Shown here in pieces: positions 3,001-6,000 of a DNA stretch of 22,930 nucleotides. The stretch's first letter is position 1, and every line of letters begins with the position of its first letter. The position numbers are program-made. Source of the stretch: Capsulimonadales bacterium (GTDB lineage Bacteria > Armatimonadota > Armatimonadia > Armatimonadales > Armatimonadaceae); assembly GCA_033762295.1 (NCBI GenBank), contig JANRLW010000021.1, positions 1 to 22,930 of the forward strand. Direction: 5' to 3'.

Positions 3001-6000
3001 AAATACGGCCAGCCGCGTCGGGTCGGCCAGGGCCTTAAAGATAGTCGCCAGATCGGGCGCGACGGGTTCCTCGGGCATCAGCTAACCTTTCGACGAACAT
3101 CGAAATTTTCGATGTTCGTCGAAAGGTTATCACGGGCGGCGGCGAGTGTCAACCCCGCCGCGCGAGGCGTCAATGGTCGGCGGTGCCGAGCGGGAAACTC
3201 GCCGCCGCGAGAGGGCCGATCTTATTGCCCCTTGCCGCCACGATCCCGAGGCGGATCGGTACGCCTCCGACAGTGCCCACCTGGCCGACGAGTCCCAGGT
3301 TGACGTAGCGACCGTCGAACTGCGCGGACAGGTTCAACCCACGCGCGACGCGGACGTTCGCGCCCGTGAGGAAGCGCCAGCGATCGCGCTCGTTGCTGAC
3401 GACCGCCGTGCCGATGTAGAGCGACAGCGGCAGCCTCGTGTTCTCCTCAATGTCTTTAGCGAGCGTGGTGAACAACCCCGACCGTCCCCCGCCGAGCGAG
3501 TCGGTTAGTACGCCCGTCGTCCAGGCGGGACGCGCCGCAGTTTCGGGGAGCAGGGTGTACGTCGCCAGGGGCCTGACAATGGACTGCTTCCACAGGTAGC
3601 CGAAGCCGACCTCAAGCCGCGGCGTGACGCCGTAGCGGACGAAGGTTTCGGTCTTGCCTGCGAGGCCGTCCGAGTGCATGGTGGCGATGAGAAGCCGCTT
3701 CTGCGGCAGTGTGGCCCCGACTGAACCAGTCGGGTTCCCGCTCTGGGCGGAATATCCAGAGGCGGGTCACAGCGGTCACGGAGGCGCGGACTGGGCGCGG
3801 GCCGCGGACGGTGCGCCAGCTACGCCCGCGAACAGCACGAGGGCGGAAATCCACCCCGCGCGGGACACTGGGATCATAAGGTTCTCCTTGGGGATCGGGA
3901 GCCGACGGTATAGGCGGGGCGGGAGATTCCCGCCCCGCCGTGACGGACTCCTACTTCGCGGCGGGCGCGGCGCAGCAGGTGGCACTGGTGTGGTTGGCAC
4001 GGGGGGCGCTGGCCTGCTTGTCGGCTTTGTCGCCGCAACATCCGCCCGTGGGACAGCCGCACTCAGCGGTGCAGACGCCCTTCGCGGAGTCGCAACAGGA
4101 CTTGTCCGCCTTGCAGCAGCCCACGACCGAACAGCAGTTCCCTTTCGCACAGCAGTTGCCGCCAGAGCAACAAGACGAAGCCGCCTTCGTTCGGGCGGCA
4201 GGGCTACGTCCGCTGGCTGCGGTGGTAGAGGCGTTGCCCGTCGTTACCACCGCCTGAGACGCCCAGACGGACCGCTTGCCGACGGTCACGAGGTAGTCGC
4301 CCTTGCCGCCAGGCGTCGAGGCGACGGCAGGAGCGGCGGCGGGGCGGGCGCAACAGGCGGTTACGCGGCTGCCGTCGCTACGGGAACCGCCAGAACCCGC
4401 GACCGACGACGCGGGGACGAAAGACACAGCCGCAAAGACGAGAGCGGCGACGGCGAACGGCGCGGAAAGCGCCGCGTTCTTGATTCGGATGACGTTCATG
4501 TTCTTCTCCTGCCCTATCGTGTCCGATGAGGCCAGATGGACGGGCGCGGGCGGGGTGCCAGTAGGCGAGCAAGCGACAAGCGCGAGCGCACCGAGGCGCC
4601 ACCAGCCGCCAGCGCGACAGCGACGATAGCCGTGTCAGGAGAAGAAAGGGGGACCGCGGGCGGGTACGGCCCCGACGGGCGGGGCGCGAGGGGCGACCGA
4701 GGTGAGAAGGAATGGCATCACCGCGACCTCGGTGGTGACGGGCACCCCGATAGCGGGTGGGGCGGGAACCCAGGCGGCCGACGGGCCGAGATCGGGAGTC
4801 ACCGCAGCGACGGCGGGCGGTTGCTCATGGTCGGGCGTGATACGCAGGTCACAGCAGCCAGGGCTGGTCAGCGCGTAGCGGTCGCTGCCGTCCGCGCCGA
4901 CCGTCACGGCGACGGCGCAGCACGAGTCGCGGTTCTCGGCGTCGGCGACCACGGGCGGCATCGGCTCGCCCGTCATGCGGCACACGAGCGTCGGGGCGGC
5001 GGGCAACGTGAAGAACGTAGCCAGCAGGCAGAGTACCGTATGGAGGGCCAGCACCCGACGGAGCATCAGGATCAATATACGGCAGATGGCACGGTTTTAG
5101 TTCCCGCAGGCTGCGTCCGTCGTGTCGGTCAGCGGACGCGAGCGGGGACTCACTGGCTCAGGAAGGCACTCCATTCGAGGGGCGGCGGTCTGTTAGGGGT
5201 ACGCGCTCGGCCCTTGCGTCGGTGTTATGTTGGCGGCGTGGCTCTACGAGGCGGGGTGGAACACGCGCAGGGAGTGCCTGGCGGTTGCTCTGCGTCAGGT
5301 GAACCATGCGCCGTAGGCGAGAACAGACCACCCATAGATGCCTTATAGTCGGGTGTCAAAAACTGCCAGCCCGTTCGGACTTCATGACGGCGTTCGGAAC
5401 CGTCGTTCCGAGCGGCGGGGAATACCTCAACACCGTCAATGGGACACACGCTTCAATGCAATAGCCCTTTGGCTGGACGAGAACACCCTTTGTAGCCGTT
5501 TGTAGGCGAGCCATGATAGATGAGCCGCGCCCCTTGCTGGAATGAGCCTGAAAACGCCCCTGTCAGCACTTTGCGGTTCAAGGCTTTGACTTTCCACTCG
5601 ACGCGACAGCCAGTGCGCGTCCTACACTTTCTCTGCGATTGCGGCAGGAGGCACTTGCGCGTCGGTTCAACAGGGTCTGGTTCACGACGTTTCCCCGACC
5701 GACAAACTGGCGCGGTGGCTCGGCTACGGCGGGGCCAGGGTACCTCGCCGTCGCCGCGCCGTAGTTCTACTGGGATTGGTTACTCGGTCCCGCGCACACT
5801 CGACATCGCCCCGTTGATCTGCTACTAAACGAGTCAGAGCGGCGTAGCAACAGTCGTCGTGAGCATCGAAGAAGACGCGAAAAATAGGTGGCGGCGATTC
5901 TGTGCCGAATGGATGCGGGCGGCACGAGAACGCGGGGAAGCACCCTCTAAAAAATGGGTTGCCAACCTAACAAGCAGGTAATAAAACCAGTGCCCCGCGT

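Follow-up and report, generated by a model that had tools for sequence, protein, structure and literature searches.

A mis-called Armatimonadota gene for a small outer-membrane barrel with an N-terminal U-P-L-U motif and two predicted selenocysteines

The minus-strand segment 3170-3877 of the window analysed here, a 22,930-nucleotide stretch of contig JANRLW010000021.1 from a Capsulimonadales bacterium, is a genuine gene that was mis-called, and it encodes a small outer-membrane barrel with an N-terminal U-P-L-U motif. Reading of the DNA bore out the initial annotation, which had described a single gene of 235 codons read through two TGA codons, a gene caller that keeps only its 169-aa 3′ part, and a signal peptide followed by an N-terminal [U/C]-x-x-U-P site. 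The elements of the gene, all on the minus strand, are as follows.

3170..3877, minus: whole gene for the predicted di-selenocysteine outer-membrane barrel protein, 235 codons plus stop TGA (homologues)
3884..3889, minus: Shine-Dalgarno sequence AAGGAG, with a 6-nt spacer to the ATG (sequence reading)
3877, minus: start ATG (sequence reading)
3794..3877, minus: signal peptide spanning codons 1-28, with A-R-A as its last residues ahead of Q29 (by inspection of the sequence)
3776..3778, minus: TGA codon 34, first predicted selenocysteine, Cys in many relatives (sequence and alignment)
3767..3769, minus: TGA codon 37, second predicted selenocysteine, TGA kept in 26 of 30 fetched loci (sequence and alignment)
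3717..3733, minus: SECIS-like hairpin CCGACU-GGUUC-AGUCGG, with a UGA-to-loop distance of 39 nt (UGA-37) and 48 nt (UGA-34)
3191..3697, minus: 12-stranded beta-barrel domain, residues 61-229 (model and fold searches)
3170..3679, minus: table-11 ORF of 169 aa kept by the gene caller, without the signal peptide, the selenocysteine site and most of strand 1
3170..3172, minus: stop TGA (sequence reading)

The read-through product starts M-IPVSRAGWISALVLFAGVAGAPSAARA and continues QSAPP-U-P-L-U-PASG. Its first residues have the make-up of a Sec-type signal peptide (charged start, hydrophobic stretch, A-x-A before Q), a layout shared by 27 aligned homologues and accompanied by a helix at residues 9-17 of the structural model. 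At the other end the protein finishes ...FPLGTADH and so lacks the C-terminal aromatic residue that constitutes the beta-signal rule for outer-membrane barrels; in members of the A-type branch and of the paralogue branch, the last residue is F, W or Y.

Several lines of sequence evidence support reading both TGA codons as selenocysteine, the insertion itself being something that we infer. The genome contains tRNA-Sec, selA, selB and selD (the last with a TGA of its own), all scoring above curated cut-offs. Among 401 Armatimonadota genomes the family search matched 42 at E≤1e-5; the 36 genomes given earlier for E≤1e-8 were recovered by counting from the search table, and 47 match rows carry two, one or no TGA in 14, 22 and 11 cases, respectively. 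Motif counts in the 30 fetched loci were reproduced as well: UP[LI]UPASG occurs in 5, CP[LM]UP.. or CPLU[AVIT][AG]GG in 18 and GGPL[ST]PSAG in 4, the remaining 3, with UPSU or CPGU, being of the paralogue type. In the 26 loci that bear the site, position 1 is occupied by U 7 times and by C 19 times; TGA-37 is present in all 26, in 19 of which TGA-34 is aligned with Cys. The relative L068, which is 60% identical, reads CPLU. Hence an in-frame UGA stands where homologues have Cys, and the wider family includes forms that are CxxC throughout. Because such all-Cys forms exist, position 2 is not always selenocysteine: the claim that it is stands for 26 of 26 site-bearing loci fetched from the phylum sample, but the wider family contradicts it with full-length CPLC, CAGC, CPVC and CPFC forms. 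The series running from Sec through Cys to neither residue holds, and the genome does contain three such genes with six TGA codons, two in each gene. The GGPLS forms, without Cys or Sec, retain the barrel, so the barrel has a role independent of the Sec/Cys site. Their former label 'redox-dead' is one that we do not keep, since it presumes a redox function that nothing shows, and the neighbourhood points at least as much towards metal binding. For codons 29-66, dN/dS was 0.12-0.44 in five pairs, compared with 0.22-0.39 for the called ORF, dS being saturated; these values indicate that purifying selection acts on codons 29-66.

Downstream of the two TGA codons, a hairpin with a 6-bp stem and a GGUNC loop was paired in 16 of 16 sequences (100%), with compensatory changes on both sides in 5 of its 6 pairs. 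None of 500 shuffles matched its score and slid controls were 37-49% paired, in whole-structure controls that scored the hairpin jointly with a second, weaker helix; the statistics reported previously were thereby reproduced. In three of four Sec-less forms the hairpin has decayed. Its small apical loop begins with GG, in line with the bacterial SECIS pattern of G followed by G or U, and hairpins of this type (at least 6 bp, loop GGTNC) number only 261 on both strands of the 5.16-Mb genome. That count is the sole use made of a genome-wide scan for GGTNC hairpins behind in-frame TGA codons, which by design is blind to U-x-x-U genes and whose 22 candidates, mostly Arg-rich wrong frames, were rejected. 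The second helix, which pairs alignment columns 30-35 with 41-46 and lies closer to the UGA, was only 69% paired and absent from the L025 group, and is regarded as unsupported. Rfam returned no family at gathering score, and no tRNA was found in the window.

The spacing of this hairpin is unusual. Excerpts of PMC13188914 place the apical loop 16-37 nt from the UGA for most bacterial SECIS elements, with some elements outside the model. Here the loop lies beyond that range from either UGA; the 32 and 41 nt first reported are correct as counts to the stem, and the distances to the apical loop are 39 and 48 nt. Among relatives, the L025 group has a loop distance of 36 nt and L068 one of 48 nt, and selD of the same genome shows an apparent hairpin about 12 nt after its UGA (read by eye; not the minimum-energy fold). 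We propose that the single GGUUC-loop hairpin, 39 and 48 nt downstream, would guide decoding of both UGAs and that the SelA/SelB/SelD/tRNA-Sec system would translate both TGA codons as selenocysteine.

The fold class is that of a 12-stranded outer-membrane barrel, as predicted by the model. AlphaFold returned 12 strands with pLDDT 82.9 and pTM 0.77, and residues 61-229 form a closed barrel of 12 antiparallel strands, most of them with pLDDT >90. The initial annotation lacked a fold search; those now run agree with the barrel that it had proposed. The best Foldseek matches were NanC and a designed barrel of 12 strands (E 4e-5 to 5e-5), and VIA-align gave Z 15.8 for KdgM, 15.7 for VhGalP, 14.6 for NanC and 10.6 for PcoB. 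The KdgM/NanC porins (PDB 4pr7, 2wjr, 8xua) are thus the closest structures (Z 14.6-15.8, rmsd 2.5-2.8 over 154-157 residues; Foldseek E 5e-5), but they are acidic-sugar channels without an N-terminal Cys/Sec tail, and identity is 4-14%. PcoB/CopB (PDB 7pge) likewise forms a 12-strand outer-membrane barrel in metal-resistance loci (Z 10.6, rmsd 4.0, 161 residues aligned) and carries an N-terminal metal-binding extension that is rich in Met and His rather than Sec or Cys; it has no sequence similarity to the window protein in Pfam or among PDB sequences at E≤10, and the KdgM-type porins match the model better. At the level of sequence, the window protein had no Pfam match at E≤0.1, the KdgM, PcoB/CopB and autotransporter families included; Pfam and NCBIfam gave no barrel match for it, its paralogue or 19 wider relatives; and a profile of alignment A1 found no PDB sequence at E≤10. 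Pfam and NCBIfam therefore hold no family for this barrel, and its likeness to KdgM is one of fold only. The broad alignment A1 yielded no conserved stretch in the related-locus search, and alignment A3 retrieved 8 loci, all in Armatimonadota.

The closest system is the U-T-G-U paralogue in the same window (1833-2549). BLASTP between the two proteins gave 27% over 135 aa (E 1e-4), and hhalign placed the paralogue, together with C-A-G-C and C-P-G-U relatives, in the same superfamily (99.5%, E 2.7e-23, 183 columns, with the motif aligned), confirming the homology previously claimed. Both proteins share the signal peptide, the [U/C]xxU-P site and the 12-strand barrel layout. They are nevertheless only 24-27% identical; the signal peptide and the motif are separated by about 30 residues in the paralogue as opposed to 5 in the window protein, the hairpin of the paralogue type starts about 12-13 nt after the UGA in relatives, and the paralogue's partner genes are those for ArsR and YHS-TlpA in place of the poly-Cys protein.

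Among known selenoproteins, the GSU2204-family MtrB/PioB-type protein (NF041027) is also a Sec-containing outer-membrane beta-barrel, and it was the sole outer-membrane barrel found by term in the parts of PMC13188914 and PMC9312934 that were available. From those parts it is a porin-cytochrome-type protein with one Sec and CXXCH, whereas the window protein is a small 12-strand barrel with two predicted Sec residues at its mature N-terminus and no NCBIfam match. Excerpts of PMC13188914 also describe a 'putative mercuric reductase' with U-x-x-U (NF041115), and P-type ATPase, MerT-like and YHS proteins in Sec form, where a C-x-x-C soft-metal site has Sec in place of Cys; in NF041115, as in the window gene, two UGAs lie six bases apart. 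As far as those excerpts go, NF041115 and its kin are soluble or inner-membrane proteins of known folds, whereas the site considered here is a tail on an outer-membrane barrel without a family model. The portions of the literature consulted on selenoprotein outer-membrane barrels, YHS/CxxC outer-membrane copper proteins and Armatimonadota selenocysteine do not describe the family.

The genes around the barrel gene include the ArsR-like, Cys-rich and YHS-redoxin neighbours that had been noted.

4635..5075, minus: 146-aa protein that carries CC...CC motifs and finishes in a PRGPP-type sequence; the closest relative has an orthologue (48% identical) upstream
3951..4499, minus: protein of 182 aa whose N-terminal part includes a hydrophobic stretch and whose tail is poly-Cys (CC pairs), directly upstream of the barrel gene and in the same place in the closest relative
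3083..3129, no strand: perfect 47-bp palindrome, operator-like, between the barrel-gene stop and the start of the ArsR-like gene
2749..3078, minus: ArsR/SmtB-type regulator with a Cys-rich insert
2561..2719, minus: 52-aa poly-Cys peptide
1833..2549, minus: paralogous barrel gene, U-T-G-U at codons 54 and 57 (sequence comparison)
1090..1818, minus: exported YHS plus redoxin protein, TlpA/ResA-like, WCGPC
534..1019, minus: 161-aa Cys-cluster protein with a CCC motif and a PRAPP end
3..413, minus: beginning of an outer-membrane efflux gene (OEP/TolC family) cut off by the contig end, matching the OEP-family protein of L045 at 41% over 96 aa

Pfam gave no match on the 137-aa OEP/TolC-type piece (3..413), and a promoter scan of positions 1-6400 found no sigma-70-like site. 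Across 21 loci (the window and 20 others), 10 have genes for HMA, YHS, P1B-ATPase, CusB-like/RND, or CsoR-, MerR- or ArsR-family proteins within 6 kb, and 11 have no recognisable metal gene, two of the latter having DsbA- or thioredoxin-type genes; the counts include related genomes and hence are not independent. In each branch the directly upstream gene encodes a secreted soft-metal binder (poly-Cys, HMA or 2xYHS). It is a poly-Cys protein in the window and the closest relative, an HMA protein in L056, L057 and L029, whose genomes hold only 2-3 HMA domains each, and a 2xYHS protein in L058 and L061; in L062 the 2xYHS gene is two genes upstream, and in L061 a CPC-type ATPase follows immediately downstream. 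Natural fusions of 2xYHS, C-A-G-C and the barrel occur in P0121, P0174, P0182 and P0192. The regulators appear discordant on the metal: the copper fingerprint of CsoR includes His, which the CsoR-family protein of L047 lacks, and in L053 the MerR-family protein carries a Cys that is characteristic of sensors for divalent metals.

Because the upstream genes encode soft-metal binders and 2xYHS-CxxC-barrel fusions exist, we consider it on balance probable that the barrel is an envelope soft-metal protein with a selenolate site; what we infer covers the binding of metal, the route that it takes (export, uptake or sequestration) and the membrane side of the site. According to this model, the exported protein would be cleaved after A-R-A to give a mature chain beginning Q-S-A-P-P-U-P-L-U-P-A-S-G, followed by a linker of about 25 residues and the 12-stranded outer-membrane beta-barrel. 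Together the two selenolates would bind thiophilic ions with high affinity, Cu(I)/Ag(I) and perhaps Hg(II)/Cd(II). Metal would reach them from the secreted carrier (poly-Cys, HMA or YHS) whose gene lies immediately upstream, and would then be retained at the barrel or handed on into it. The YHS-TlpA-like reductase encoded nearby would maintain the site in its reduced state, and the barrel would represent the point at which an envelope route of metal detoxification ends in the outer membrane. Against this reading, U-x-x-U and C-x-x-C are well known as redox motifs too, and the barrel persists in the GGPLS forms that lack the site.

The main alternative is that the barrel is a true selenoprotein whose U-x-x-U does redox chemistry (as a diselenide/diselenol centre) instead of binding metal, making it an outer-membrane-anchored oxidoreductase or sensor that is cycled by TlpA-like, DsbA or thioredoxin-NHL neighbours, with peroxides, metalloid oxyanions or reactive species of sulfur or selenium as possible substrates. 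The thioredoxin-type character of the motif, the exported WCGPC redoxin in the window, L045 and the C35 module, the DsbA and thioredoxin-NHL genes flanking the gene in L046, and the missing copper His in the CsoR-family neighbour of L047 are all consistent with such a role, but the motif sits in an unstructured N-terminal tail of the model without a thioredoxin fold, the nearby genes for HMA, YHS and CPC-ATPase proteins favour metals, as do the YHS fusions, and the redoxins themselves bear a YHS domain. Bacterial selenoproteins catalogued in the consulted part of PMC9312934 are mostly redox proteins, which also speaks for a purely redox role; overall we judge that role unlikely, if worth serious consideration.

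We regard as distinctly less probable an autotransporter-like arrangement in which the N-terminal segment threads the barrel, exposing both selenocysteines (and, in the fused relatives, the YHS domains) at the surface, where the site would capture or reduce metal outside the cell. An N-terminal part joined to a C-terminal 12-strand barrel is the type Va architecture, and VIA-align matched EstA, NalP, AIDA-I, Hbp, FapF and a COG4313 channel with Z 12.2-15.6; these matches begin at model residues 25-37 (36-37 for the autotransporter barrels) and therefore include the N-terminal segment, of which residues 31-40 have pLDDT ~80. Residues 41-60, by contrast, have pLDDT 56-69 and no helix, the partner proteins are encoded by separate genes, as expected for periplasmic hand-over, and no Pfam autotransporter family was matched. 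Least probable by far is that the locus encodes no selenoprotein, the TGAs being stops and the 169-aa ORF the gene, or the locus a decaying pseudogene. This would agree with the behaviour of gene callers, which retain that ORF only, with the 67 of 67 database relatives that cover ≤79% of the query, none extending to the N-terminus, with the atypical hairpin spacing, and with two relatives that appear broken (an internal TAG in L033, a frameshift in L074). It is countered by the 169-aa product itself, which lacks a signal peptide and begins within strand 1, by the frame, motif and purifying selection that run across both TGAs in five orthologues, and by Cys for Sec in relatives, the covarying hairpin and the full Sec machinery.

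Taking the soft-metal reading further, we tentatively suggest, as a possibility short of an expectation, that an Armatimonadota lineage uses a barrel with an N-terminal selenocysteine pair as its working site, the first outer-membrane family with selenolate metal ligands, fed by secreted poly-Cys, HMA or YHS carriers and with both UGAs decoded via one SECIS 39-48 nt away. If so, an exported outer-membrane family would join the bacterial selenoproteome, and YHS, HMA and poly-Cys periplasmic metal carriers would have an unrecognised outer-membrane partner. Single-SECIS decoding at 39-48 nt would be a natural relaxation of spacing beyond the limits of the textbook bacterial model, and would offer a natural test case for the maximal SECIS-UGA distance and for one element serving two UGAs. 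It would also follow that gene callers systematically remove the functional N-terminus of this barrel family and that public databases hold it almost only as truncated 'hypothetical proteins'; in the ESM Atlas, the Cys-form relative P0069 met only 'putative outer membrane protein' and hypothetical clusters.

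The minus-strand frame at 3170-3877 is a mis-called gene. Under translation table 11 its open frame comprises only 3170-3679 (169 aa), which starts at Met67, within the first predicted strand, and lacks a signal peptide. The DNA itself reads as follows (the hairpin draws additionally on an alignment of 16 Sec-bearing genes of this branch):

3889-3884, minus: AAGGAG, 5′ of the ATG
3877, minus: start ATG
3778-3776, minus: in-frame TGA, codon 34
3769-3767, minus: in-frame TGA, codon 37
3733-3717, minus: hairpin CCGACU-GGUUC-AGUCGG
3172-3170, minus: stop TGA, ending the 235-codon frame

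Decoding both in-frame TGAs as Sec yields MIPVSRAGWISALVLFAGVAGAPSAARA/QSAPP-U-P-L-U-PASGYSAQSG... and, behind it, an alternating sequence rich in Gly and aromatic residues. Codons 29-66, which lie 5′ of the called start and cover both TGAs, gave NG86 dN/dS ratios of 0.12-0.44 in five orthologue pairs and the called ORF 0.22-0.39; the ratios are only rough because dS exceeds 1, but they still show the protein frame evolving under purifying selection across both TGAs. The assembly (5.16 Mb, 94% complete) encodes tRNA-Sec, selA (515 bits), selB (318 bits) and selD (379 bits), the last itself containing an in-frame TGA.

At E≤1e-5 the read-through protein has matches in 42 genomes of a 401-genome Armatimonadota sample. 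Counting from the match table reproduced the 36 genomes at ≤1e-8 of the initial annotation, and relatives with two, one or no TGA were again found (14, 22 and 11 of 47 match rows). Frames extracted from the 30 fetched Armatimonadota loci fell into the following motifs:

UP[LI]UPASG: 5 loci (L014-L018)
GCPLUPSSG: 2 loci (L019, L020)
CP[LM]UPP[AS]G: 9 loci (L025-L030, L033, L035, L040; L040 incompletely readable)
CPLU[AVIT][AG]GG: 7 loci (L031, L032, L034, L036, L038, L039, L041)
GGPL[ST]PSAG, neither Sec nor Cys: 4 loci (L021-L024)
UPSU or CPGU, as in the paralogue: 3 loci (L037, L042, L043)

Outside these 30, L068 (60% identical) carries CPLU and L074, which looks frameshifted, UPIU. The motif lies 5-6 residues past the A-x-A/Q signal-peptide end in all complete cases, slightly further in some A-type members. 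The series shows that the N-terminal site of the family varies between Sec and Cys. An internal TAG in L033, a frameshift after about residue 170 in L074 and a TGA within the expected signal-peptide region of L020, whose start position is ambiguous, may mark pseudogenes or assembly errors.

On the evidence of the aligned genes, the hairpin after the TGAs covaries. As previously claimed, every one of its six pairs is standard in 100% of cells, with two-sided changes in five of them. Controls were run on the whole structure, taking in this hairpin plus a second helix closer to the UGA: 0 of 500 shuffles reached its covariation score or paired percentage, and slid controls were 37-49% paired. The second helix was dropped, being paired in only 69%. 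The residues that the hairpin encodes vary (T/A/I-G-S/T/A/P-V/A/I-G/E) with pairing retained, it is lost in three of four forms without Sec, and hairpins of this kind (stem of 6 bp or more, loop GGTNC) number only 261 on both strands of the genome. The weak point of reading it as a SECIS element is spacing: its loop starts 39 nt past UGA-37 and 48 nt past UGA-34, outside the consensus UGA-loop distance of 16-37 nt given for most bacterial SECIS elements in the pertinent passages of PMC13188914. The distance is 36 nt in the L025 group, 48 nt in L068, about 18 nt in the A-type branch and 12-13 nt in the paralogue branch; in the genome's own selD a hairpin GGGCC-GUC-GGCCC was read by eye 12 nt past the UGA, where the RNAfold minimum-energy fold chose otherwise. 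If the hairpin works as the element, the target branch tolerates spacings of 36-48 nt, a range that would agree with two UGAs, nine bases from each other, sharing a single hairpin. Weighing this spacing with the decoding genes, the motif series and the constrained frame, we consider it very improbable that the TGAs are not Sec codons and that the target is no selenoprotein.

The family proved wider, and unnamed. A profile search of 1.84 billion representatives returned 296 proteins at E≤1e-3; of the 150 listed, we counted only about 21 that extend to the motif region, and the others are fragments or calls cut short. In another database, none of the 67 near relatives covers more than 79% of the query; the few with a name are labelled only 'hypothetical protein'. 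Named cluster members belong to Armatimonadota and candidate division KSB1, and no Pfam or NCBIfam model and no PDB sequence matches the target protein. Full-length members carry CPLC, CPFC, CPVC, CPAC, CAGC or CTLC; the proposal that the second position is always Sec therefore holds for the sampled Armatimonadota loci and fails in the wider family. Four members (P0121, P0174, P0182, P0192) fuse two YHS domains to C-A-G-C and the barrel, and P0144, judged by its motifs, has YHS-type Cys motifs before C-A-G-C and the barrel. In another, P0134, the motif is C-V-G-W-P-G-E-G vs C-x-G-U-P-G-E-G in relatives; the W may reflect a TGA that gene calling at the source translated with a different table.

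Profile comparison of the target branch with the paralogue/CAGC branch (hhalign 99.5%, E 2.7e-23, motifs aligned) shows that the two are homologous, and the target is a second branch of the barrel family. The genome does hold three barrel genes with two TGAs each; the third, a U-T-G-U gene on another contig (C35:38852-39484(-), L066), forms a compact module together with a YHS-redoxin and a Cys-rich, paralogous ArsR-like regulator. Pairs of barrel genes from different branches also occur in tandem after a 2xYHS gene (L062:6646-8510) and adjacent and divergent (L045:6549-7910), which we liken to the side-by-side genes of this window.

AlphaFold2 on a 50-row alignment (pLDDT 82.9, pTM 0.77) gave a signal helix and twelve strands across residues 61-229, with pLDDT about 80 at residues 31-40 and 56-69 at residues 41-60. 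The fold search that the barrel claim had lacked bore it out: Foldseek against PDB returned a designed 12-strand barrel (E 4.4e-5) and NanC (4.9e-5), then FapF, VhGalP, OMPLA and intimin, and VIA-align over 48,161 chains returned KdgM (Z 15.8), VhGalP (15.7), the COG4313 channel (15.6), EstA (15.4), FapF (15.2), NanC (14.6) and PcoB (10.6). This places the protein, by prediction, among the 12-stranded outer-membrane barrels. Alignments to EstA, NalP, AIDA-I, Hbp, FapF and COG4313 start at model residues 25-37, which hints that the N-terminal segment lies within the barrel lumen in the model. Surface display of the site seems distinctly improbable.

The target lies in a metal locus. Upstream, in reading order, are a 146-aa CC...CC protein gene and a 182-aa secreted poly-Cys protein gene, and this three-gene order recurs in the closest relative (69% identical).

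6331-8799, minus: 822-aa ORF, weak Resolvase-domain match (E 3e-6), flanking the locus
4635-5075 and 534-1019, minus: small Cys-cluster proteins (also L044:6940-7368, L058:9158-9553 and L063:7534-7914 near other barrel genes)
3951-4499, minus: 182-aa secreted protein with a CC-pair tail (CCSGGNCCAKGNCC...)
3083-3129: perfect 47-bp palindrome (two 23-nt arms around 1 nt), between target stop and ArsR-like gene start
Downstream, in order: ArsR/SmtB regulator with Cys-rich insert; 52-aa poly-Cys peptide; U-T-G-U paralogue; exported YHS + redoxin protein; 161-aa Cys-cluster protein; first part of an OEP-family gene cut off by the contig end

The CC-pair-tail protein, possibly a periplasmic metal sponge, is conserved in the two closest genomes as the immediate upstream neighbour of the UPLU barrel (counterpart L044:7472-7915(+)). 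The small proteins share a hydrophobic stretch at the N-terminus, clusters of the CC...CC kind and a PRGPP/RAPP end rich in Pro; the one pair compared, window and L044, is 48% identical, and the type has no Pfam or NCBIfam family. In exact form the palindrome occurs only once in the genome; the C35 module has a half-site with two mismatches shortly before its ArsR-like gene (C35:39944). G+C is 66-71% in the metal locus (1-5000) vs 57-68% (mostly 59-64%) elsewhere in the window; the locus may be a mobile island at the contig end.

Metal-carrier neighbours and fusions accompany the family. Among 21 loci (the window and 20 further loci annotated with a crude ORF picker and Pfam), ten, the window included, have recognisable soft-metal genes within 6 kb, and nine showed nothing telling. 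An HMA protein with a Cys/His tail lies directly upstream of the barrel gene in L056, L057 and, outside the survey, L029; a 2xYHS protein does so in L058 and L061, and in L062 two genes upstream with a second barrel in between. Directly downstream in L061 is a P-type ATPase with HMA, CPC, YN and MxxSS. A CsoR-family gene is directly upstream in L047, a MerR-family gene nearby in L053, YHS-redoxin, OEP and CusB-like genes nearby in L045, and in L052 CusB-like and RND genes immediately after a Sec-less form. The five genomes checked have only 1-3 HMA domains each, and YHS matches number 3-9, so direct adjacency is unlikely to be chance on these counts, although the genomes are related. By their fingerprints, the neighbouring regulators presumably disagree on a single metal. 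A 182-aa HMA-domain frame with one in-frame TGA in another genome (G110:C7:46698-46856(-)), which also has a CPLU barrel, is a candidate HMA selenoprotein.

Selenocysteine has a low pKa and a soft character, which would favour metal binding. We lean towards a selenolate metal site, in which the two selenolates, at or in the barrel, would bind a thiophilic metal that the upstream carrier passes on, and the YHS-redoxin would keep both reduced. DsbA and thioredoxin-NHL genes occur in L046; set beside the metal genes of the other loci, a redox role of the U-x-x-U site appears unlikely, less so than surface display. In the passages concerned, Sec in C-x-x-C metal sites (PMC13188914) and one large outer-membrane barrel selenoprotein (PMC13188914, PMC9312934) are already known; a small barrel with N-terminal U-x-x-U is absent from NCBIfam release 20 and from the outer-membrane-related passages of both papers. 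The window also carries a second efflux system unrelated to the target, an HlyD/CusB-like adaptor with a MacB-type FtsX permease after it (12707-15537(+)).
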